Source: a virus (Duplodnaviria > Heunggongvirae > Uroviricota > Caudoviricetes). Taken from it: 30,441 nucleotides of DNA. Under the pieces are notes generated by a model. That model was given only the letters and a program-made list of their open reading frames with translations. It was not told the DNA's origin and ran no database searches. The position numbers were made by a program, and so were the translations under genes. Location: IMG/VR virus record IMGVR_UViG_2563366799_000003; one strand, given 5' to 3'. Numbering within the stretch: the first letter of the stretch is position 1; each line of letters begins with the position of its first letter. Below are positions 5,381-26,189 of the stretch, piece by piece.

Positions 5381-5885
5381 GTTAATCCATGTTGCCCGTC
5401 GCAATCTACAACTGGACGATGACACCTACCGCTCTGTACTGATGCGAGTGACGGGAAAGCAAAGCTGTCGTGACCTGAGAGTCGGCCAACTGGAGGATGT
5501 GCTGAAGGTACTGGAGGATAAGGGTTTCATTCGTACCCGTCCCCGTTCTCCGGCTCGCCGTCATCGTGAGACAGATATCACCGCAAAGGTCCGCAGCATC
5601 TGGCGGCAGATGCATCTTGATGGGTTTATCCGTGATGGCAGCGATACCTCACTCGATTCGTTCGTCGCGAAGATGACTGTCAGAACCAACAAAGGTAAAG
5701 GTATCGCCAGCCTGGCATGGTGCCGTGGCGATAATCTTCTGATGGTGCTGGAAAGCCTCAAGCAATGGCACCTGAGAGAAATGACAGAGGCGCTGAGTCC
5801 GCGAGACCTGGCATTTCAGGATAATCGGGGTTATGACGCCATCAACAGCCTGTATTCCAGTAAAGTAAGAAAGGTGCGCACATGA
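5358..5885 (+). CDS. gemA: GemA-like early regulatory protein (Mu gp16 family)
   Basis: ATG at 5358 with GAGGGA ribosome-binding site; N-terminus MSRASLIKLIHVARRNLQLDDDTYRSVL matches the gp16/GemA family pattern as recalled; position immediately upstream of mor as in Mu. Confidence 0.65.
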   Translation: MSRASLIKLIHVARRNLQLDDDTYRSVLMRVTGKQSCRDLRVGQLEDVLKVLEDKGFIRTRPRSPARRHRETDITAKVRSIWRQMHLDGFIRDGSDTSLDSFVAKMTVRTNKGKGIASLAWCRGDNLLMVLESLKQWHLREMTEALSPRDLAFQDNRGYDAINSLYSSKVRKVRT

Positions 5886-6289
5886 GCGAAAAGCAGAATG
5901 ACCTGTTTGGTGATATCCAGGATGACAGCATTCTGGAGCACCTGGACGATGACAGTTCGGCGGAAACTGTGCGTTTCCCTGCACTGCTGACAGAACTGAA
6001 TACGCTGTTGCGTGGCGAACTGACAAAGCATGGTGTTGACCCACGAATCTCTCTGGAGCTGGTCTATGCGATTAGCTGTCAGATTGGTGGAATGCAGATT
6101 TATTTTCCACGCGGCCAGACTCTTGAGTCATTGATTCGTGATATGAAAATCTGGCGTGATTTCAATGGCAGAAACATCACAGAGTTGGTTGAGCGTTACC
6201 GTGTTACCTATAAAACGGTGTATAAAGCAATCCGGAGAATGCGAAAGTTAGAGCAAGGTAAGAGGCAGCTCTCATTTAATATGGAGTGA
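5882..6289 (+). CDS. mor: Mor/C-family transcriptional activator (middle/late gene activator)
   Basis: 135 aa; acidic N-terminus DLFGDIQDDSILEHLDD, dimerisation region RFPALLTELNTLLRGEL, C-terminal HTH GRNITELVERYRVTYKTVYKAIRRMR; ATGA overlap with gemA stop. Only Mor/C-family member in the window. Confidence 0.85.
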   Translation: MSEKQNDLFGDIQDDSILEHLDDDSSAETVRFPALLTELNTLLRGELTKHGVDPRISLELVYAISCQIGGMQIYFPRGQTLESLIRDMKIWRDFNGRNITELVERYRVTYKTVYKAIRRMRKLEQGKRQLSFNME

Positions 6290-6293
6290 TAAT

Positions 6294-6617
6294 ATGGTTG
6301 GTGTGATTGTTATTAACATAGTTTGTATTATATGTGTTTTTTGGGTTTTCTTTGATGCTACTTCTAACAACATAGGAAGTTATGTTGTTAGAGACGGTGT
6401 GCGAAAAGGATGTCGCAGAGGCATACACCCTGTGGTTTGGGCTGCGCTGAGTATATTTATACTTCCTTTTATTTGGTATCTGATCAACAGGAAATCTTTA
6501 TTGATCGCTGCGGAAGAATATCCAGTAAAGACTGATAAAAGCGTAAGTTTTATTATTCTACTTTTGTTGGTATCAGGATGGTTGCTCTATCGCTACAAAG
6601 ATTATTTATTCTATTAA
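6294..6617 (+). CDS. small integral membrane protein (107 aa, three predicted TM helices), AT-rich moron; possibly PLD-nuclease-N-terminal-like fold
   Basis: ATG 4 nt after the mor stop with GGAG ribosome-binding site (translational coupling); three hydrophobic stretches (res 3-21, 47-63, 84-99); motif VVWAALSIFILPFIWYLINRK; markedly AT-rich codon usage unlike neighbours; followed by an intrinsic terminator. Confidence 0.55.
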   Translation: MVGVIVINIVCIICVFWVFFDATSNNIGSYVVRDGVRKGCRRGIHPVVWAALSIFILPFIWYLINRKSLLIAAEEYPVKTDKSVSFIILLLLVSGWLLYRYKDYLFY

Positions 6618-6633
6618 GTTATAGCCAATACAA

Positions 6634-6649
6634 TGAAGCCGGTTAATCC
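6634..6649 (+). promoter_or_regulatory. candidate late-promoter activator site (motif TGAAGCCGGTTAATCC) upstream of the endolysin gene
   Basis: Identical 16-mer recurs at 14608-14623 upstream of gene I; motif centre is 69 bp upstream of the lys ATG (6714). Confidence 0.4.
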
Positions 6650-6660
6650 GGCTTTTTTTT
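6636..6660 (+). terminator. rho-independent terminator ending the early/middle transcript
   Basis: Perfect 7-bp stem AAGCCGG / CCGGCTT (6636-6642, 6648-6654) with loop TTAAT, followed by a T8 run to 6660. Confidence 0.7.
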
Positions 6661-6713
6661 CGTCCGGCACATGATGGAAGGGAAATCTAACCCACTTCCA
6701 AAGGTGCCGTTTT

Positions 6714-7304
6714 ATGAACAACACCCCCGATTCTCCCGCATTTCGCAATGCTCTTGCTTTCGTGCTCAGCGCAGAACGCGGATATGTCAATGACCCCACT
6801 GACCGTGGCGGTGAAACTAACTTCGGTATATCAGATAAACGCGACGGTGTTGCCGATGGCATGACCGACGTTAATGGCGATGGCAAGCCTGATACTCGTA
6901 TTCGTGATTTAACGGTTGAACAGGCCGGACAGATTTACTTCCGTGACTACTGGTATCCGGCGTATTGCCAGTTATGGCCGGATGATATCGCCCTGTTTGT
7001 CTTTGATTCTGCCGTCCAGCATGGCGTCAAAAAGGCTGTCCAGTTGCTTCAGGAAGCTGTGGGTTTCACTGGCAAAAGCGTTGACGGTATCGCCGGTAAA
7101 AACACCCGTGCAGCCGTTGAGCGTGCTGACCCTGACTGGCTGCTGAACCGTTTGTTTCTGCAACGTTCCCGCTATTACGCCGACATCATCAAAGCAAACT
7201 CTTCGCAGGGCAAGTTCCTCAACGGCTGGTTTAACCGCCTTGACAACCTCGCTGACGCCTGTCGTGAGATTTCCGGTGTCCGCTATTCGGTAGCCCGGAG
7301 CTGA
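6714..7304 (+). CDS. endolysin, glycoside hydrolase family 108 N-domain with C-terminal peptidoglycan-binding domain
   Basis: 196 aa; GH108 signature SAERGYVNDPTDRGGETNFGI; C-terminal region RSRYYADIIKANSSQGKFLNGWFNRL resembles PG_binding_3; no N-terminal TM or signal anchor. Confidence 0.8.
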   Translation: MNNTPDSPAFRNALAFVLSAERGYVNDPTDRGGETNFGISDKRDGVADGMTDVNGDGKPDTRIRDLTVEQAGQIYFRDYWYPAYCQLWPDDIALFVFDSAVQHGVKKAVQLLQEAVGFTGKSVDGIAGKNTRAAVERADPDWLLNRLFLQRSRYYADIIKANSSQGKFLNGWFNRLDNLADACREISGVRYSVARS

Positions 7305-7924: not shown

Positions 7925-8520
7925 CCATCTCTACCGTTGCCAGCGTTCTGATGAAGGCAGGACCGTCGTTACTGCGTACCGTGGGCGGCTGGTTCGGTGG
8001 CGACACCGCCAGAACGGCAGATTCTGTGGCGGGGATCGTTGAGAACGTCAACAGCGTCATCAACCCGCAGGACCAGCAGCGGGTGCTTGAGCAAAAACTG
8101 GCGGCGCTGCCGCCAGAACAGTTCGTCCAGCTCCAGTCCCTGAAGGTCCAGATTGAACAATTCCAGCTTGAGCGGGACAAAGCCGTACTGGCTGACCGTC
8201 AGGCTGCCCACCATGAACAGCAGGAAACCATCCGTAACGGGGACAACGCCACGGATGAATATGTCCGTCAGACCAGACCGCTGATGGCCCGGCTGTCGCT
8301 ATACAGCAGCATTGCGTATGTGATGCTGATGTCTGTGGGTCAGCAGGCTGGCGCGGTATCCGGTGCTTTTGGTCATGCCTTCTCCATGCCATCACCGGAC
8401 TGGGATATCGCACTCATGCTGGCGACACCGGCGCTTGGGTATCTTGGTTTTCGTACCCTTGACGGGTTCGCCCGGTACAGCAAATCCAGCAAACACAAAA
8501 CGATGGCGGCGGGTAGATGA
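7912..8520 (+). CDS. hypothetical lysis-region protein with hydrophobic C-terminal segments (possible holin-like or spanin-like component)
   Basis: 202 aa; soluble coiled-coil-prone middle (QQRVLEQKLAALPPEQFVQLQSLKVQIEQFQLERDK); C-terminal hydrophobic stretches LYSSIAYVMLMSVG and IALMLATPALGYLGF; 13-nt overlap with upstream gene. Confidence 0.4.
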   Translation: MDPVTISTVASVLMKAGPSLLRTVGGWFGGDTARTADSVAGIVENVNSVINPQDQQRVLEQKLAALPPEQFVQLQSLKVQIEQFQLERDKAVLADRQAAHHEQQETIRNGDNATDEYVRQTRPLMARLSLYSSIAYVMLMSVGQQAGAVSGAFGHAFSMPSPDWDIALMLATPALGYLGFRTLDGFARYSKSSKHKTMAAGR

Positions 8521-9035: not shown

Positions 9036-9329
9036 ATGAGCATGCAAGAAATCCTCAACAGCGACCAGCGTCTGGTCATTCTGCGCTCACTGGTGGAGTG
9101 CGGAGACAGTGCAAACGAATCCATTCTACAGACCTGCCTCCAGACCTACGGCCACCGGGTTTCCCGTGACACCGTCCGCACCCTCCTTGCGTGGCTACGT
9201 GAACAGGGACTCGTCACCCTGTCAGATGTCTCCGGGTGTTACGTCGCCGGCATCACAGGACGCGGTGAAGATGTGGCCTTTGGGCTGGCGACGGTCCCCG
9301 GCGTCAAAAAACCACGTGCGCGGGAGTGA
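9036..9329 (+). CDS. hypothetical protein (97 aa), possibly winged-helix-like
   Basis: ATG with AGAGG ribosome-binding site; segment LVILRSLVECGDSANESILQTCLQTYGHRVSRDTVRTLLAWLREQGLV resembles a wHTH; no family assigned. Confidence 0.5.
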   Translation: MSMQEILNSDQRLVILRSLVECGDSANESILQTCLQTYGHRVSRDTVRTLLAWLREQGLVTLSDVSGCYVAGITGRGEDVAFGLATVPGVKKPRARE

Positions 9330-12125: not shown

Positions 12126-13693
12126 TGTTTAAACAACTAACCGGAGCCGTTCGCCGGCTGCTCAGTCCTGCCACGGGAGAAGTTGTCACCGTGAACAAGG
12201 ATGAGCTGAAGCAGACGCAATCCGCAGCGGCGGTAATGAGTGTACGTTCCCCCTCGGCAGGTATCAGCGTTGCCAGTACGCTGAGTCCCGGCAGGCTTGC
12301 GGGGATCTTACGTAATGCAGCCGATGGTCATGCCCGTGATTTCTTCATTATGGCGGAGGAACTGGAGGAACGTGACCTCCACTACGCCAGCGTTTTACGT
12401 ACACGCAAGCTGACGGTTTCCGGGATTGAACCTTCAGTGGAGGCCGGGAGCGATTCCCCGCGGGATGTGGAAATCGCAGATGATATCCGTAACCTCATGG
12501 CGCAACCGCAGGTTCCCGAACTGCTGTTCGATTTGCTGGACGGGCTTGGTAAAGGCGTTGGTGTCTGCGAAATCCTCTGGAATACCAGCACCACACTCTG
12601 GAAACCCCGCGATTATGAATGGGTAGATCCACGTTTTCTGAAACCTGACCGGGAAACGCTGCGTGATTTCAGACTACTGACGGACAGGAACCCCATCGAT
12701 GGTGAGCCATTGTCACCGGGGAAATTTATCGTCCATAAGCCCCGCCTGAAATCCGGTCTGCCCTTGCGTAACGGTCTGGCGCGTCTGGTGGCCGTCATGT
12801 ATATGCTCAAGTCCTACACAGTCCGGGACTGGTGGGCGTTTGCTGAAAAATTTGGCATCCCGATTGTGGTGGGTAAATACGGCAACAACGCCAGCCCGGA
12901 ACAAATCCAGACATTGCTGGATGCGATTGCATCACTGGCATCAGATGCCGGCTGCGCAATCCCCGACTCGATGAAACTGGAGATGCAGGAAGCGGCGAGC
13001 CGTAACAGCGGTGGCACTCTCTTTAAAGAGATGGCCGAATGGTGTGACGCGCAGATTAGTAAGGCCGTACTGGGGCAGACCATGACCACGGATGACGGCA
13101 GTTCACGTGCTCAGGCGGAAGTCCACAATGGTGTGCGTATGGACATCGCCAAATGGGATGCCTGGCAGTTATCCAACACGCTGTCTGAATTCCTTGTTCG
13201 TCCCTATGTGGATATGAATTACGGACCACAGGAGCATTACCCCCGCGTCGTTCTGCGCATCAGCAAACCGGAAGATCTTAAGGTTCTGGTGGATGCACTG
13301 TCGCCGCTGATTGACCGGGGGATGGAAGTTCAGATGTCAGAGATCCGTGACAAATTCGGGCTGTCTGAACCGGAGAAAGGCGCAAAAATTCTGACACCAA
13401 CGGCGCAAATGACTAACCCACTACCGGCCATGAACCGTGAGCAGACTGCGCTTAACCGCAGCCAGCCTGACGTTCTTGATATGATGGTGGATGAAGCGAT
13501 GAATGACTGGCAGCGTACCGGCGATGCGTTCACCAGTCCGGTGCTTGAGCTGGCAAAGAAATCTGACAGCTTTGAATCTTTTCTTGCTGGCCTGCCGGCG
13601 CTTCAGAAAGAACTTGATGCGGATGAGTTTGCGACGCAGCTGGCGATGCTCTGTTTTAAAGCCCGGTCGCTGGGAGATGTAAACGATGGCTAA
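12125..13693 (+). CDS. portal protein (Mu gp29 / DUF935 family)
   Basis: 522 aa directly after the large terminase with a 1-nt TGATG overlap; size and order as in Mu. Confidence 0.85.
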   Translation: MFKQLTGAVRRLLSPATGEVVTVNKDELKQTQSAAAVMSVRSPSAGISVASTLSPGRLAGILRNAADGHARDFFIMAEELEERDLHYASVLRTRKLTVSGIEPSVEAGSDSPRDVEIADDIRNLMAQPQVPELLFDLLDGLGKGVGVCEILWNTSTTLWKPRDYEWVDPRFLKPDRETLRDFRLLTDRNPIDGEPLSPGKFIVHKPRLKSGLPLRNGLARLVAVMYMLKSYTVRDWWAFAEKFGIPIVVGKYGNNASPEQIQTLLDAIASLASDAGCAIPDSMKLEMQEAASRNSGGTLFKEMAEWCDAQISKAVLGQTMTTDDGSSRAQAEVHNGVRMDIAKWDAWQLSNTLSEFLVRPYVDMNYGPQEHYPRVVLRISKPEDLKVLVDALSPLIDRGMEVQMSEIRDKFGLSEPEKGAKILTPTAQMTNPLPAMNREQTALNRSQPDVLDMMVDEAMNDWQRTGDAFTSPVLELAKKSDSFESFLAGLPALQKELDADEFATQLAMLCFKARSLGDVNDG

Positions 13694-14480
13694 GCCGGTC
13701 AGCGATAAATACAGCATTATTCCCCAGGAAGCACTGGCCTGGCTGAAGGCGAAAAAGCTGAAGCCGGGATTTGATTACCGCGATGTCTGGATGGAAGAAC
13801 ACAGCATCGGCTTTACTGTGGCAAAGATGACGCAGCTTGATTTGCTGGCGGACGTTCGCCAGCTCGTGGAGGACGCACTGGAGAGCGGCCAGACCTTTGA
13901 GCAATTTCGCGAGGTTCTTAAACCTATGCTGGTCAAACGTGGATGGTGGGGACAGCAACTGATGGATGATCCACTGACCGGTGAAACCCGTACTGTCCAG
14001 CTCGGCAGTGACCGCCGGATGCGCGTTATCTACGACACCAACATGCGGACAGCCCGCGCGGCGGGACAATGGCAGCGTATTGAACGGACCCAACGGGCAA
14101 TGCCTTATCTTGTCTACACCGTCGGCCCCTCACGTGAGCACCGTGCGGAGCATCTGCGCTGGAAGGATGTCTGCCTGCCGGTGGATCATCCGTTCTGGCG
14201 AACACACATGGGGCCGAACGGCTGGGGATGCAAATGCGGTACACGGCAAATCAGCCGGTATGAGTATGAGCAGATGAAGGCCAACGGCACTATCAACACG
14301 GAAGCCCCTGAAGTGCGTACGGTCAGATGGGTTAACAAACGCACCGGCGAAGAAGAGACCATTCCGGAGGGGATTGATCCCGGCTGGGCGTACAACCCCG
14401 GAATCTCCCGCAGTCGCGAGCTGGATGAACAGCTACGCAGAAAACAGGACGCGTTTGACAGTCATTCGCCACAAAGATAA
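13686..14480 (+). CDS. head morphogenesis protein (Mu F-like)
   Basis: 264 aa overlapping the portal end by 8 nt; minor-head-protein-like sequence; order as in Mu. Confidence 0.75.
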   Translation: MAKPVSDKYSIIPQEALAWLKAKKLKPGFDYRDVWMEEHSIGFTVAKMTQLDLLADVRQLVEDALESGQTFEQFREVLKPMLVKRGWWGQQLMDDPLTGETRTVQLGSDRRMRVIYDTNMRTARAAGQWQRIERTQRAMPYLVYTVGPSREHRAEHLRWKDVCLPVDHPFWRTHMGPNGWGCKCGTRQISRYEYEQMKANGTINTEAPEVRTVRWVNKRTGEEETIPEGIDPGWAYNPGISRSRELDEQLRRKQDAFDSHSPQR

Positions 14481-14580
14481 AAACCATCCCACAACGCGCG
14501 TGGCGGCATTAACGATTATTACGTCATGACGGCACGTGAAAAAATCGTTAAACGCGCCACAGCGTTTTTAAACGTGTTTT

Positions 14581-14603
14581 AAACGCGGTTTCATGCCGCG
14601 TTT
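14581..14603 (+). other. 8-bp-stem hairpin AAACGCGG / CCGCGTTT (loop TTTCATG) within a cluster of TTAAACG(C/T)G dyad repeats
   Basis: Directly readable inverted repeat; three TTAAACG(C/T)G copies at 14548-14556, 14568-14576 and 14579-14587; a further AAACGC / GCGTTT dyad at 14550-14567. Confidence 0.5.
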
Positions 14604-14607
14604 ACAG

Positions 14608-14623
14608 TGAAGCCGGTTAATCC
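14608..14623 (+). promoter_or_regulatory. second copy of TGAAGCCGGTTAATCC motif, candidate late promoter of the I-T head operon
   Basis: Exact 16/16 match to 6634-6649; motif centre is 65 bp upstream of the gene I ATG (14684). Confidence 0.4.
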
Positions 14624-14683
14624 ACCTGCATCCCCGTTCCCCCCCACACTGTCCGGAAGTAAACAACGTGACCGGACAACACC

Positions 14684-15640
14684 ATGAACCCGAACAATAC
14701 GGAACTGCTGGCGCTCTGCTTTCAGCTTCCTGACCTTACCGATGATGCATTGCCGGAATGGCTGCCGATGATACCGGCGGGAACCTTTACAGGGCGTGAT
14801 GGCCGTTCGTGGGTGAACAACAATCCGGAAGCCATCATTCGTGCCTCGATGGCTTATCCAAAGCTCCCGTTTGATATCGAGCACTCTACCGAACTGAAAG
14901 GCCCGAAAGGCGATGAAGCCCCGGCTTATGGCTGGATTGACGGCTATCGCGTCAGTGATGGCGTGGTGGAGGCGCACGTTGAATGGACTGATGACGGCAT
15001 GGCGCAGCTGCGCGGCAAGAAGTACCTCTATTACAGTCCGGCCTTTCGGTTCACTGCGGACGGTCAGGTCACCCGCCTGTCCAGCGCCGCGCTGACCAAC
15101 AAACCCAACCTTGATTTACCCGCACTCAACTCTGAGGAAAACACGATGACCGTACCTGTCCAGATTGTGACAGTGCTTGGCCTCGCGGCCACTGCCACAG
15201 CAGACGACGCAGTAAAAGCCATTCAGCAGATTAAGACCGCCGAGCAGGTGGCGCTTAACCGCGCTGAGAATCCTGACCTGACGAAGTTCATTCCGGTAGA
15301 GACCCACCAGTTAGCACTTAACCGTGCGGAAAGCGCTGAAAACAAACTCAATGAGATTGCCATCAAAGAATCAGAAGCACTGGTGGACAGCGCCATTGAG
15401 TCGGGGAAAGTCGCACCGGCCAACCGAGAAATGTATCTCGCCACCTGCCGCTCTGAAGAGGGCCGAAAGCGGTTTGCTGAATTCGTGAAAGCGGCACCGG
15501 TCATTGTCAGCAAGACCACGACGACCAAAAAAGAAGGCACCGAAGGTCATGCCTCGCTTTCTGACGAAGACCTCGCGATGTGCCGCCATATGGGCATCAG
15601 CGAAGAAGAATTCCTTTCCGTTCGTAAGCAGGAGAAATAA
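14684..15640 (+). CDS. head maturation protease / scaffold (Mu I-like)
   Basis: 318 aa immediately upstream of the major head gene; N-terminal protease-like domain and coiled-coil-rich C-terminal half (scaffold-like). Confidence 0.85.
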   Translation: MNPNNTELLALCFQLPDLTDDALPEWLPMIPAGTFTGRDGRSWVNNNPEAIIRASMAYPKLPFDIEHSTELKGPKGDEAPAYGWIDGYRVSDGVVEAHVEWTDDGMAQLRGKKYLYYSPAFRFTADGQVTRLSSAALTNKPNLDLPALNSEENTMTVPVQIVTVLGLAATATADDAVKAIQQIKTAEQVALNRAENPDLTKFIPVETHQLALNRAESAENKLNEIAIKESEALVDSAIESGKVAPANREMYLATCRSEEGRKRFAEFVKAAPVIVSKTTTTKKEGTEGHASLSDEDLAMCRHMGISEEEFLSVRKQEK

Positions 15641-20832: not shown

Positions 20833-21228
20833 ATGGCTGAACTGACATTCCCTCTGGTACACGGTCTGCGCACCGGCAAAGGTACTACCGACGAAATGCT
20901 TCACAAGGATGTGACGCTACGCGAGCTGACATCACGGGATGTTATCGAATCACAACTGGCCTCCGAGCGCGTTGTGATTGGGGATAACGGCAAGGCGGTT
21001 GCCTACTGCTCTGAGGTCATGATGGGTCTGGAGATGATGCGCCGGCAGATTAAGAAGATTGGAGAAATCCCCGGCCCGCTGGACATGAATCAAATTTATG
21101 CCCTGCATCCGGAAGATTTGAAGTTGCTGACAGAAAAGGGTCAGGCGATGGATGACATGCTGGGGGAGACTGCCGAACGGGGGCGACATGATGCCGATGG
21201 CAGCGGCGCTCAATCTACTGCTGATTAA
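20833..21228 (+). CDS. tail assembly chaperone (Mu Y-position)
   Basis: 131 aa between tube and tape measure; acidic C-terminus; an overlapping alternative-frame ORF bridges to the tape-measure gene (see findings). Confidence 0.6.
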   Translation: MAELTFPLVHGLRTGKGTTDEMLHKDVTLRELTSRDVIESQLASERVVIGDNGKAVAYCSEVMMGLEMMRRQIKKIGEIPGPLDMNQIYALHPEDLKLLTEKGQAMDDMLGETAERGRHDADGSGAQSTAD

Positions 21229-21314
21229 CCTCTCTCAGCGTTTCGATGTTAACCGGCTTGAGCAACTGCCCCTACGGCAGTTGCTTATTCAGGTCAGGCA
21301 ACTGAGGAAGCAAT

Positions 21315-23234
21315 ATGACAAACCGCCTAAGCACTGAAATTCTGATTAACCTTGCCGGGAACCTGACGGCTAAAGCCCGCCAGTACGGCGCTAACATGAG
21401 CGAGTTTGCCAGCCGTAACCAGAAAGCAATGTCTGTTGTTAAGGCCGCGTCTGAATCTGCCGGACGTGGTCTGGACATGCTCAGTAATCGCTATACAACG
21501 ATGATTGCCGGCCTTGCCAGCGGCGCAGCGCTGAGAGAATTTGCTAAAACAGATCGACAATTAACCGGGCTGGGTATTGCCGCCGGTAAAACTCGTGATG
21601 AGATGCGCAATATCTTTGATGGTATTCAGGATACCGCCATCAAATTCCGGGTGGATGACTCGGAGGTGTTGGCCGCACTGGAGAATGTCAACAAAACGAC
21701 CGGTGATCTGGATTTCGGTATTCAGAATAAGGGCATGATAGCCGCCTCTATCGCTGCATCAGGCTCTCAGGGGGATTCGATTGGCGGACTGTTTTCTCAG
21801 TTCCCCAAATTTGGTCTTCAGACTGAAAAGCAGACGCTTGCAGCTATGGACACGTTAAACCTTCTGGGAAAAGAAGGCGCATTTGAGCTGAAAGACATTG
21901 CAGAAAAAGGCGTCAGAGCCTTCTCTATGTACTCCGCTGCTGGCGGGAGTGGCGTTAAGGGAGTCAAAGACGTAGGCGTTGTACTGGAATCAGCCATTGA
22001 TGCCACAGGCAACCGTGATACAGCAGCCACGGCGACTGAAAACCTTATTCGTGATCTGCAGTTGCCAAAGGTTGTTAGCACCCTTCGAAAGAATGGTGTC
22101 AACGTTTATGACAAAGATGGGAAGATGCGATCACTTCCAACACTCCTGGAGGAAATCGCTAAAAAATCAGGGAGTAAAGGTTCTGAGAAACAGAATAAAA
22201 GACTCCTGGAAGCCGGTTTTAACCAGGACAGTATTTTACTTATCAGCAGTGCCACCTCTGGTAAAGGAGCAGAAAACCTCAAGCGATACCAGTCAGTTGT
22301 CGGGGACGGCACAGGCATCATGAAAGATGCTGAATATGCGGCGAAAGATTTTACTTCGGCACTGACCAGCCTGAATGTTACCTGGAAGAAGTTTTCTAAC
22401 AGCAATCTTGCCGGCCCGGTACAGGACCTGGCTGATGCTATCAATTCAGTTGATCAAAAGACGGTTCAGAACTGGCTGGAAGTCGGCAAGAAAATAGCCA
22501 TTGCGACCGCTGGAGTCATTGCGGCACGTAAAGCATTTAAAATTGGTAAAGGTGCATGGGAGTTTCTCCAGCCAGAAAAAGGCGGAAAAGGCATCCCTAA
22601 AGGCGTCTCCGATGTTTTTGGCTCCGGTGTTATGCCCGTTTATGTCGTGAACATGGGCAAAGGTGGGATGGGGGGGCCGGGTGATTTAATCCCCGATGGA
22701 CCTGATGGAAAAAATCCCCGTAAACCTAATAGTCCCAGACGTCCTGGCAGCCCACAGGAAATGGTCGGCCTGACCATGCTGGCGTCAACTATTCCATACC
22801 TTTATGAAGAACCATCACTGAGCAGTGATGACAAAGCTGGCATGGTTCAGTGGGCAAAGGATCGTGCCAAACGCAAAGCAAATGAGAAACCGGTTATTGA
22901 CCCGCGCCCGTGGGCATCACTGACCCCGGCGACGCCGTTCATTCCTGCGGCTGAAAATCCCCCGGCAGACAGACCGCGCCCTGAAACGAGTGATCATTCT
23001 TTGTTTGGTGTCATCGTTGATTTTCTGCGTGGCACCAACGCCGCAATTGAAAACAAAAACGCGTTTGATAAGCCTGTTCAGCCACCTGCATTACCCACAA
23101 CCCTACAGAAAATGCAGGGTGAAATCCGCGTGATCCTTGAGGGTGGCGGTGGCCGTGTTAAAAGCGTCACCATGAACCAGCCGGATATCAAACTTAGTGC
23201 ATCTGCTGGCGTGTCCAGCGTGGAGCAAGGCTGA
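21315..23234 (+). CDS. tail tape measure protein (Mu N-like)
   Basis: 639 aa; Ala/Gly-rich helical regions and a Gly/Pro-rich segment (GKGGMGGPGDLIPDGPDGKNPRKPNSPRRPGSP); located after tube and chaperone. Confidence 0.85.
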   Translation: MTNRLSTEILINLAGNLTAKARQYGANMSEFASRNQKAMSVVKAASESAGRGLDMLSNRYTTMIAGLASGAALREFAKTDRQLTGLGIAAGKTRDEMRNIFDGIQDTAIKFRVDDSEVLAALENVNKTTGDLDFGIQNKGMIAASIAASGSQGDSIGGLFSQFPKFGLQTEKQTLAAMDTLNLLGKEGAFELKDIAEKGVRAFSMYSAAGGSGVKGVKDVGVVLESAIDATGNRDTAATATENLIRDLQLPKVVSTLRKNGVNVYDKDGKMRSLPTLLEEIAKKSGSKGSEKQNKRLLEAGFNQDSILLISSATSGKGAENLKRYQSVVGDGTGIMKDAEYAAKDFTSALTSLNVTWKKFSNSNLAGPVQDLADAINSVDQKTVQNWLEVGKKIAIATAGVIAARKAFKIGKGAWEFLQPEKGGKGIPKGVSDVFGSGVMPVYVVNMGKGGMGGPGDLIPDGPDGKNPRKPNSPRRPGSPQEMVGLTMLASTIPYLYEEPSLSSDDKAGMVQWAKDRAKRKANEKPVIDPRPWASLTPATPFIPAAENPPADRPRPETSDHSLFGVIVDFLRGTNAAIENKNAFDKPVQPPALPTTLQKMQGEIRVILEGGGGRVKSVTMNQPDIKLSASAGVSSVEQG

Positions 23235-24565
23235 TGGCTGCTACCCGATGGGAAGACCTGCGCGATGCTTCGTTCCGGGGCGTCTCGTTTTATCTGGTCG
23301 ATAACGAAGGCACCAGCGGCCGTCGGGCAATTCCCCGCGCCTACCCCAAAAAAGAAGTGGGCTGGACCGAGGATAACGGTGCCGTTCTGACCCAACAGCA
23401 AATCAACGGCAAGCTGATTGGAAAGAACTACCAGAGCCAACTGGAGGCACTTCTCCGGGCTCTGAACACACCTGGACCCGGTGAACTTATCCATCCGTGG
23501 TTCGGCATTCAGAAGGTTCAGATTGGTAAGGTGACTCACCGTCTGAGCACTGAGGAAGGCGGCATTGCCTACATCTCTTTTGAGGTATCTGAGGCGGGCG
23601 AGCGCCTGTTTCCTGCGCCGGCAGAAAATACCAGCCTGACGGTACTCAGCGCAGCGGATAAGGTCAAAGCTGCGCTGGCGAATGGCGATGTCTTTGCCCT
23701 GCTTGATGGTCTTGGTGAGATGGCCGATACGTGGATGGACGACATGGAAAATCTGGTAGTGGGTGTGCTGACGCTGCCCTCCGCGATTACTGAATGGACT
23801 GACCGTTTAGGGCGTTTTCGTGGGTTGATTGAGCTGGCCGTCGCGAAACCAGCCGGATTTATCAATGATGTTCTGAACCTTGTCAGCGGTGTACGCGACA
23901 CCGTGACCGAACCTCTTTGGTCAATGCGGGTTTATGATCAGATCCGCAACCGGTGGCAGGGAGATCAGTTTTCCGGTTCTTCATCTTCGCCGTGGTCGTC
24001 GCCGGTTTCGCCAACAAATACAAGTGACCGGGCGACAGCCGCTGCACTTCACCAGTTGCCCAAATACATGTCAGTCACACCAGGTTCAGTGACTGACGGA
24101 AAGTATGGTTTTGCCAGCAGCCTTCCGGACGTTGTCCCTGAACTGACCGATGCCATGCAGGCCAACATCACTCATTTTCGTCAGCTGATTGTCGTTGCCA
24201 GCCTAATTGGACAGGCAGAGACCGTTGCCAGCACCGAGTTCAGAAGTAGTGAGGAAGCCATAAGTGCGGGTGACACGCTGGCTGAGCAACTGAATGAACA
24301 AGCTGTGTATGCCGTAGAAAACGGTCAGCGGAATTTGTGGCATGCCCTGCGCGAGCTGCGCTTTGCCGTCGTCAATGACGTGCGGGTCAGAAGCGCTCAG
24401 CTACCACAGACACGAACGGTCATTCTGACCACAACGTCCCCGGTATCTCTGATTGCATGGCGTGAAACCGGTAATACCGAGAACCGTGACGCCATCGCGT
24501 CAAGGAACCGATTGAAAGACCCGGCGTTCGTTCTTCCGGGTAAACCTGTCGAGGTAACAGATTGA
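23234..24565 (+). CDS. DNA circulation protein (Mu P-like), baseplate-associated
   Basis: 443 aa; TGATG overlap with the tape-measure stop; N-terminus MAATRWEDLRDASFRGVSFYL matches the DNA_circ_N pattern as recalled. Confidence 0.75.
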   Translation: MAATRWEDLRDASFRGVSFYLVDNEGTSGRRAIPRAYPKKEVGWTEDNGAVLTQQQINGKLIGKNYQSQLEALLRALNTPGPGELIHPWFGIQKVQIGKVTHRLSTEEGGIAYISFEVSEAGERLFPAPAENTSLTVLSAADKVKAALANGDVFALLDGLGEMADTWMDDMENLVVGVLTLPSAITEWTDRLGRFRGLIELAVAKPAGFINDVLNLVSGVRDTVTEPLWSMRVYDQIRNRWQGDQFSGSSSSPWSSPVSPTNTSDRATAAALHQLPKYMSVTPGSVTDGKYGFASSLPDVVPELTDAMQANITHFRQLIVVASLIGQAETVASTEFRSSEEAISAGDTLAEQLNEQAVYAVENGQRNLWHALRELRFAVVNDVRVRSAQLPQTRTVILTTTSPVSLIAWRETGNTENRDAIASRNRLKDPAFVLPGKPVEVTD

Positions 24566-25656: not shown

Positions 25657-26189
25657 ATCCGGCAAATATCGGTCGCACACTTGAAGGTATTGGACGCCGG
25701 CTGCGATTGCTCGTTGACAGGGCCGTTGTTCGTATCGTTACAGACAGTCTCGGGCGTCAGAACCTCCAGATCCAGTCTCTGGCGGATTCCACCAATGATG
25801 ATGTTGAACGTTTCCAGAACTACGGCCTGACGTCTGTGCCGCCAGTCGGTTCAGAAGCACTCATTCTGGCAGTGGGGGGACGCCGGGAAGGTCTGGTGGC
25901 AATCGCTGTTGAAGACAAGCGCTGTCGTCCAAAAGGTCTGGAGGATGGAGAGGTCAGGTTATATCACGGCGATGGTCAGTCTTATATCACCCTGAAAAAA
26001 GGTGGTCTTATCGACGTTAAAGGGAAATCGGTTAATTACGATGCCGGCGAATTGTTTGCGATAAATACAAAATTATTAAAAGTTAACGGCCCATCTGTAT
26101 TTTCAAATGATATTCAGGTCGCCGGTAAATCTGTTCTTGAGCATTTCCATATGGACGGGGATGGCAAAAAAACATCGGAGATGAAATGA
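25647..26189 (+). CDS. baseplate spike / assembly protein V (Mu gp45-like)
   Basis: 180 aa; ACGGAGG ribosome-binding site; size and order as gpV-type spike. Confidence 0.75.
   Translation: MGLNPANIGRTLEGIGRRLRLLVDRAVVRIVTDSLGRQNLQIQSLADSTNDDVERFQNYGLTSVPPVGSEALILAVGGRREGLVAIAVEDKRCRPKGLEDGEVRLYHGDGQSYITLKKGGLIDVKGKSVNYDAGELFAINTKLLKVNGPSVFSNDIQVAGKSVLEHFHMDGDGKKTSEMK

Follow-up and report, generated by a model that had tools for sequence, protein, structure and literature searches.

Predicted Mor-dependent promoters of the Mu Pm type upstream of the lysis and head/tail operons of a Mu-like prophage

The middle promoter Pm of bacteriophage Mu is activated by the protein Mor. A Mor dimer binds a 16-bp element, which consists of two 5-bp inverted repeats around a G/C-rich hexanucleotide and is centred at position -43.5 (Ma and Howe, 2015, PMC4390567), with a range of -51 to -36 (PMC4287176). 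The proximal UP-element subsite of Pm is at positions -57 to -52, and the bases named for Pm are -57G, -56T and the adenines -55 to -53 (PMC4390567). For the C protein of Mu the binding consensus is TTAT-N5-6-ATAA, and Qx[D/E][L/M]F is the sliding-clamp-binding consensus of the Mor/C family (PMC12867686).

The GenBank record of Mu (AF083977) annotates nucleotide positions 9163-9233 as the Mor-activated promoter Pm and shows a predicted terminator (positions 9179-9200) inside it, i.e. the overlap between terminator and activator site is already annotated there. Pm reads ACAGTAAAGCCGGTTAATCCGGCTTTTTTTACGTCCTCAATATCCTG, in short form ACAGTAAAGCCGGTTAATCCGGCTTTTTTT...TATCCT. The numbering used here was derived from the base identities quoted in PMC4390567: as -57G, -56T and the adenines -55 to -53 fix the Mu +1 at 9224, the element AGTAA-AGCCGG-TTAAT is found at -51 to -36 and the -10 hexamer TATCCT at -13 to -8.

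The DNA analysed here (the window, 30,441 nucleotides) is a Mu-like prophage whose genes are all on the plus strand. The gene order is transposase A and B, early genes, GemA, mor (5882-6289), a cargo open reading frame (6294-6617) and the GH108 endolysin gene lys (6714-7304), followed by the terminase and portal genes, F (13686-14480), the protease gene I (14684-15640), and capsid and tail genes. The prophages of E. coli CAVP776 and EC09 are identical to the window; in these strains the left border is a repressor/Ner pair and the right border an invertible fibre segment with a recombinase, and the prophage so bounded has no C, com or mom gene. A megablast search of the region against isolated phages gave no match, and no Rfam family was found in the window. 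The 107-aa open reading frame at 6294-6617, between mor and the motif described below, has no Pfam match and is exchangeable cargo. Other strains have at this position either an unrelated 169-aa open reading frame (positions 997-1506 of relative L001) or none, and homology between strains restarts past the cargo gene at the left edge of the motif.

A 16-nt sequence, TGAAGCCGGTTAATCC, is present at positions 6634-6649 and 14608-14623, both times on the plus strand. An earlier note on this DNA had described these copies as identical, and they are; the similarity extends further, to 20 of 21 nt (TACAATGAAGCCGGTTAATCC at 6629-6649 and TACAGTGAAGCCGGTTAATCC at 14603-14623). Both copies are intergenic and have essentially the same distance to a start codon, and the hairpin centres agree with the distances given in that note, 69 nt before lys (6714) and 65 nt before I (14684). 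The window has three matches to the motif with up to three mismatches, a number reached in none of 100 shuffles. Other chance repeats of 15-17 nt do occur in this 30-kb window, which is what speaks for a chance origin of the motif repeat as well; by itself the repeat is modestly above background, and its weight therefore rests on comparison with other genomes. The comparative data refute chance, the probability of which is negligible: the copies are intergenic, on the same strand and equally far from a start codon, and they are kept in about 80 relatives and in Mu.

Both copies display the 16-bp arrangement of two 5-bp A/T-rich inverted repeats flanking a G/C-rich hexanucleotide, and both have a -10 hexamer with no -35 hexamer, as is characteristic of the Mor type. 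The predicted promoter features are as follows.

6632-6647, plus strand: site 1, predicted Mor-binding element of the lys promoter, AATGA-AGCCGG-TTAAT; PWM score 31.3 of a maximum of 31.4 bits; aligns base for base with the Mu Pm element
6670-6675, plus strand: predicted -10 hexamer of the lys promoter, CATGAT, 22 nt past TTAAT; predicted +1 near 6683
14606-14621, plus strand: site 2, predicted Mor-binding element of the I (head/tail) promoter, AGTGA-AGCCGG-TTAAT; PWM score 30.8 bits
14645-14650, plus strand: predicted -10 hexamer of the I promoter, CACACT, 23 nt past TTAAT; predicted +1 near 14658

The PWM was made from the sites of relatives. It gives more than 30 bits for the two window sites and 13.0 bits for the next best, and in the Mu genome it finds Pm alone (28.8 bits). 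The second-best match in Mu (L085 in our set) is AGGCAAAGCCGGTAAATCC at 30675-30693 in the gp47 baseplate gene, with 17.0 bits, which is at the top of the shuffle range.

The Mor element of Pm is matched at 14 of 16 positions by site 1 and at 15 of 16 by site 2, with left half-sites (AATGA and AGTGA) that are one or two positions off the AGTAA of Mu. As in Pm, CC follows immediately downstream at both sites, and at site 1 the full CCGGC and T-run are present. The distance from TTAAT to the -10 hexamer is 22 nt in Pm, 22 nt at lys and 23 nt at I; CATGAT and CACACT are weak hexamers, and a weak -10 at this spacing, with no -35, is shared with Pm. In the -35 region of lys the best match to TTGACA is 2 of 6, and a sigma-70 consensus scan showed no promoter at sites 1 or 2. 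Predicted from the spacing, as a proxy for start-site mapping, the element centres are at -43.5 (lys) and -44.5 (I). The -57 to -52 subsite reads CAATAC at lys and GTTTAC at I; both are A/T-rich and keep the AC end of the Mu sequence GTAAAC, with the A-tract lost.

Site 1, like Pm, comes just after the mor-encoding early operon. There are also differences. Mu has one such site, which drives the middle operon (E18-E20 and C), whereas the window has two copies, possibly three, which are predicted to drive lys and I directly. The window has no C gene, and the cargo open reading frame at 6294-6617 separates mor from the site.

The protein that would act at these sites is encoded as follows.

5882-6289, plus strand: mor, the sole Mor/C-family activator gene of the prophage and the last conserved gene of the early operon

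The 135-aa product matches Pfam Mor with E = 1.8e-30. Its identity is 63% with Mu Mor (E = 6e-59) and 35% with Mu C. In the window protein and in Mu Mor alike the recognition helix reads TVYKAIRRMR, and in Mu C it reads QIYQIIARQR; the longer segment VT(Y/F)(K/N)TVYKAIRRMR is conserved in Mor, its counterpart in Mu C being LSQPQIYQIIARQR. Tblastn found no second Mor/C-family homologue in the window, nor was one found in the remainder of the prophage. Judged by its sequence, the window protein is a Mor orthologue and not a C orthologue. Because the helix is identical in Mu Mor, cross-activation by Mu Mor is predicted, and existing Mu reagents could thus be directly usable. At the N-terminus the sequence QNDLF (window positions 5894-5908) fits the sliding-clamp-binding consensus, and DLF is kept in most relatives.

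It had been proposed that the motifs mark activator sites of -35-less promoters comparable to the C-dependent late promoters of Mu. The anatomy of sites 1 and 2 bears out the first part of this proposal, but the appropriate model is the Mor-dependent Pm. [quoted passage not shown] At I, the window can be aligned with Mu PI over the -10 region, the leader hairpin and the intergenic repeats upstream: CACACT aligns with CAAACT of PI (read as the -10 from the annotated promoter span), and the sequence before the I site is aligned with the Mu G-I intergenic region, so that only the activator box differs. That box, however, is a Mor site and not TTAT-N5-6-ATAA, and the only member of the family in the prophage is the Mor orthologue with its 35% identity to C. 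Three C-type late promoters with half-site recognition at sites 2 and 3 are accordingly highly improbable. Site 2 keeps the whole 16-bp Mor element despite the loss of the hairpin, and half-site recognition is thus wrong for it; the third site, discussed below, is non-conserved coding sequence with a score below 8 bits and a chance probability of about 0.12.

The F-I intergenic region (14481-14605) has three TTTAAACG(C/T)G repeats, as well as two hairpins (14546-14574 and 14581-14603) with a combined fold energy of -23.8 kcal/mol (z = -4.2). The Mu G-I region that aligns with it has an annotated gyrase cut site and a predicted terminator.

A terminator scan found one further feature at site 1.

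6635-6660, plus strand: hairpin GAAGCCGG-TTAAT-CCGGCTTT followed by T8, overlapping site 1; predicted intrinsic terminator of the early operon

The stem is a perfect 8 bp with five G-C pairs, the T8 is at 6653-6660, and the RNA fold has -12.6 kcal/mol (z = -3.6). The sequence thus has the G+C-rich stem-loop and U-run of an intrinsic terminator, and site 1 looks like a terminator besides an activator site; the earlier suggestion that the palindrome with T8 has both roles is supported by this hairpin and by the match to Mu Pm, whose hairpin and T-run likewise read as a terminator of upstream transcripts. The early terminator of Mu at the position of Pm is a prediction of the GenBank record; the name t9.2 for this terminator was not found in a literature search. 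Site 2 continues as ACCTGC, and with the right hairpin arm and T-run lost (fold -5.4 kcal/mol, z = -1.0) it does not have the structure of an intrinsic terminator; in this it differs from Pm.

The hairpin palindrome, centred at 6645, was considered as the Mor dyad and rejected, since its centre would be at -38 and the published centre is -43.5; the register AGTAA-N6-TTAAT was taken. The predicted protein-binding dyad is therefore the left arm plus loop of the hairpin (AGTAA-AGCCGG-TTAAT in Mu), not the hairpin palindrome.

About 80 related loci were fetched by their portal protein (71%-100% portal identity) from Raoultella, Klebsiella, Kluyvera and Pluralibacter genomes and from viral contigs. 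The earlier note had called for a scan of related Mu-like genomes. The core CGGTWAATCC was found in these loci on the plus strand before lys and before I, but never near the tape-measure gene. Among these relatives there is no third conserved place for the element, apart from one weaker intragenic candidate.

The loci provide 50 distinct lys sites, this being the number of relatives' sequences with a detectable element, and 44 distinct I sites. Of these 94 sites, 93 have, 22-23 nt past the element, a hexamer whose second base is A and whose sixth is T; at lys the spacing is 22 nt in 47 of 50, and at I it is 22-23 nt in all 44. The -35 match to TTGACA is 2 of 6 at lys and at most 3 of 6 in 43 of the 44 I sites. 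Across the 50 distinct lys sites, each position of the hairpin and T-run shows at least 90% conservation. This is no less strict than for the Mor element, and terminator function alone would thus account for the conservation of site 1. At the I sites conservation is limited to the Mor element and the CC next to it. Many relatives have the full hairpin and T-run at the I site too; in many others the right arm or the T-run is lost and the left arm, loop and CC are kept.

These data bear on the possibility that the motif is a conserved intrinsic terminator at operon ends, with no activator role, whose copies are alike through duplication. A textbook hairpin with T8 at site 1 would agree with this, as would the many relatives with a full hairpin and T-run at both places and an identity between copies of up to 32 nt. 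It is nevertheless unlikely, because site 2 of the window and many I sites of relatives lack the right arm or T-run yet keep the experimentally defined Mor element of Mu, and because a correctly spaced -10 hexamer accompanies 93 of 94 distinct sites.

The full cassette, AAGCCGGTWAATCCGGCTTTTT, occurs at least 125 times in the fetched viral-contig loci. Among the matches listed, every cassette with identifiable neighbours is located from mor to lys (80), from mor to E18, which is the true Mu arrangement (13), or from F to I (21). Alternatively, the repeat could be a modular-recombination junction or gene-conversion remnant with no regulatory function. The cargo gene does vary by strain with the break in homology at the left edge of the motif, and the identical stretch of up to 32 nt between the copies of some relatives suggests conversion. 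This explanation is very unlikely: recombination is to be expected at conserved regulatory DNA as a by-product of its conservation, and a junction leaves unexplained why the element agrees with a mapped Mor operator, why its distance to the -10 is fixed and why it is conserved amid diverging flanks.

Klebsiella phage Kp4866-3 (OK490420, an unannotated record) belongs to the same family as the window. Its Mor is 71.5% identical, and its three best plus-strand PWM matches are before lys, before I and at the position of the gp45 gene. It differs in the I site, which is the variant GGGAAAGCGGTTAATCC with no T-run. No published analysis of the Kp4866-3 promoters was found.

By their anatomy, their homology to Pm and their conservation, sites 1 and 2 are probably Mor-dependent promoters of the Mu Pm type, for which Mor binding, start positions and termination at site 1 are predicted. 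The early operon ends with mor, and early transcription would yield Mor. Mor would bind the 16-bp element, i.e. the 5-bp A/T-rich inverted repeats around AGCCGG, with a centre about 43-45 bp upstream of the start; bound Mor would replace the missing -35, and sigma-70 RNA polymerase would start from the weak -10 (CATGAT at lys, CACACT at I). Since the prophage has neither a C gene nor a middle operon, Mor would switch on the late operons directly, that is the lysis/packaging operon and the head/tail operon, in a cascade of two tiers versus three in Mu. On a transcript arriving from upstream the right arm of site 1 and the T8 would complete the hairpin. With this hairpin and U8 on early-operon transcripts, the same 30 bp would end early transcription and restart it under Mor control, in line with the annotation of Mu Pm.

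Of the three candidate late promoters proposed earlier, sites 1 and 2 look real. The third was said to be an inverted half-copy of the motif upstream of the tape-measure gene, about 64 bp before N.

21249-21259, minus strand: inverted 11-mer TTAACCGGCTT (site 3 of the earlier note), inside the open reading frame 21152-21337 at codons D-V-N-R-L-E

The 11-mer is present, but it precedes the tape-measure gene (21315) and not N (23234). It is confined to near-identical relatives; there is a mismatch in one close relative, and the sequence of every distant one is different. Its PWM score is below 8 bits, and in a simulation some 11-nt sub-word of the palindrome occurs somewhere in the window with P of about 0.12. 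As a promoter site it was rejected as a chance match, being coding, not conserved and compatible with chance.

The open reading frame 21152-21337 is a +1/-2 frame extension of a gp41-like tail assembly chaperone, with a conserved peptide ...NLSQRFD..L.QLPLRQLL.... An overlapping conserved extension of this kind is consistent with a programmed frameshift, which is verified in Mu.

A PWM match at 24460 (10.3 bits, about 100 nt before a P-like gene, a place where a PP analogue would be plausible) was dropped, as no relative has 12 bits or more there. Another match is the weaker intragenic candidate mentioned above.

26021-26036, plus strand: candidate third Mor-type element AGGGA-AATCGG-TTAAT in the baseplate-spike (gp45-like) gene; PWM score 13.0 bits (26020-26038)

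In the window, 13.0 bits is within the shuffle range. Nearly all relatives, though, have a score of 12-22 bits at the homologous position, which ranks third among the plus-strand matches of Kp4866-3. The element is encoded at codons G-K-x-V-N, where synonymous sites are frozen: AAT and a third-position G are each found in 50 of 50, and Val only as GTW. Over the whole gene the entropy of third positions averages 1.14 bits. When the codons were recoded synonymously, the observed score was reached with p = 0-0.024 (median about 0.002) in 12 of 13 peptide variants, a test that is biased because the position was picked by score. A -10-like hexamer, GATAAA, is found 23 nt downstream (26060-26065), and across relatives the hexamer at this distance is GATAAA, CATTAT, CATTGT or TATAAA. 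The segment 26021-26065 may be a third promoter embedded in coding sequence, like Mu PP, which is likewise intragenic (in gene N); it is presented as a candidate only.

A 20-nt repeat with 90% identity, GCGATAAATACA..ATTATT, is found at 13702-13721, which is the start of gene F, and at 26058-26077, the -10 region of the intragenic candidate. It may be due to chance.

The sequences downstream of both Mor elements can form hairpins with a similar arrangement.

6665-6709, plus strand: lys leader hairpin, with its 5' arm across the -10/+1 region and its 3' arm over the ribosome-binding site; -20.5 kcal/mol, z = -4.2
14650-14678, plus strand: I leader hairpin TGTCCGG..CCGGACA, arranged like the lys leader; -11.0 kcal/mol

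Both structures are kept in relatives with differing sequences, and that of I is kept in Mu PI too. Each leader was folded separately, as a read-through transcript and from the predicted +1, and the values depend on the predicted start sites. For 37 distinct lys leaders the mean MFE is -21.6 kcal/mol in read-through transcripts versus -4.5 from the predicted +1, and accessibility of the ribosome-binding site is 0.29 versus 0.54. The corresponding figures for 36 distinct I leaders are -14.6 versus -2.5 kcal/mol and 0.18 versus 0.64. RNAalifold gave no structure for the lys leaders on a MAFFT alignment, which is not structure-aware. Given the predicted starts, the folding suggests that good translation is limited to promoter-initiated transcripts.

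A wider reading is offered tentatively and is doubtful as a whole, namely that the large group of enterobacterial Mu-like prophages to which the window belongs has collapsed three tiers to two by means of a portable terminator-plus-Mor-promoter cassette at operon boundaries (mor-lys, F-I and perhaps the spike gene), together with leader hairpins that mask the ribosome-binding site on read-through transcripts. The 5' arm of the leader precedes +1, so that on read-through transcripts the ribosome-binding site would stay masked, and only transcripts initiated by Mor would be translatable. If this is true, cassette and leader hairpin would hold the lysis and morphogenesis genes off until Mor acts.

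The motif, the binding protein and the terminator overlap are already known from Mu; what is new is the predicted use of the Mor element at late operons in this prophage family, the candidate intragenic site and the leader design. An anonymous repeat thereby becomes a testable regulatory map with one activator, two (perhaps three) promoters and predicted starts, and this map covers a family of Mu-like prophages, widespread but unstudied, that occurs in E. coli, Klebsiella and relatives. Late operons that, with no C, appear to use the middle-promoter module of Mu and not a C-type late promoter bear on the evolution of the Mor/C cascade.

One further observation concerns a subgroup of relatives (such as L004, and L143 at position 8361), in which a Mor-like word, CAAGGAAGAAGGTAAATGT, is found on the minus strand of the lys leader with 15-18 bits. 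This word is near-identical to the intragenic candidate site of other relatives.
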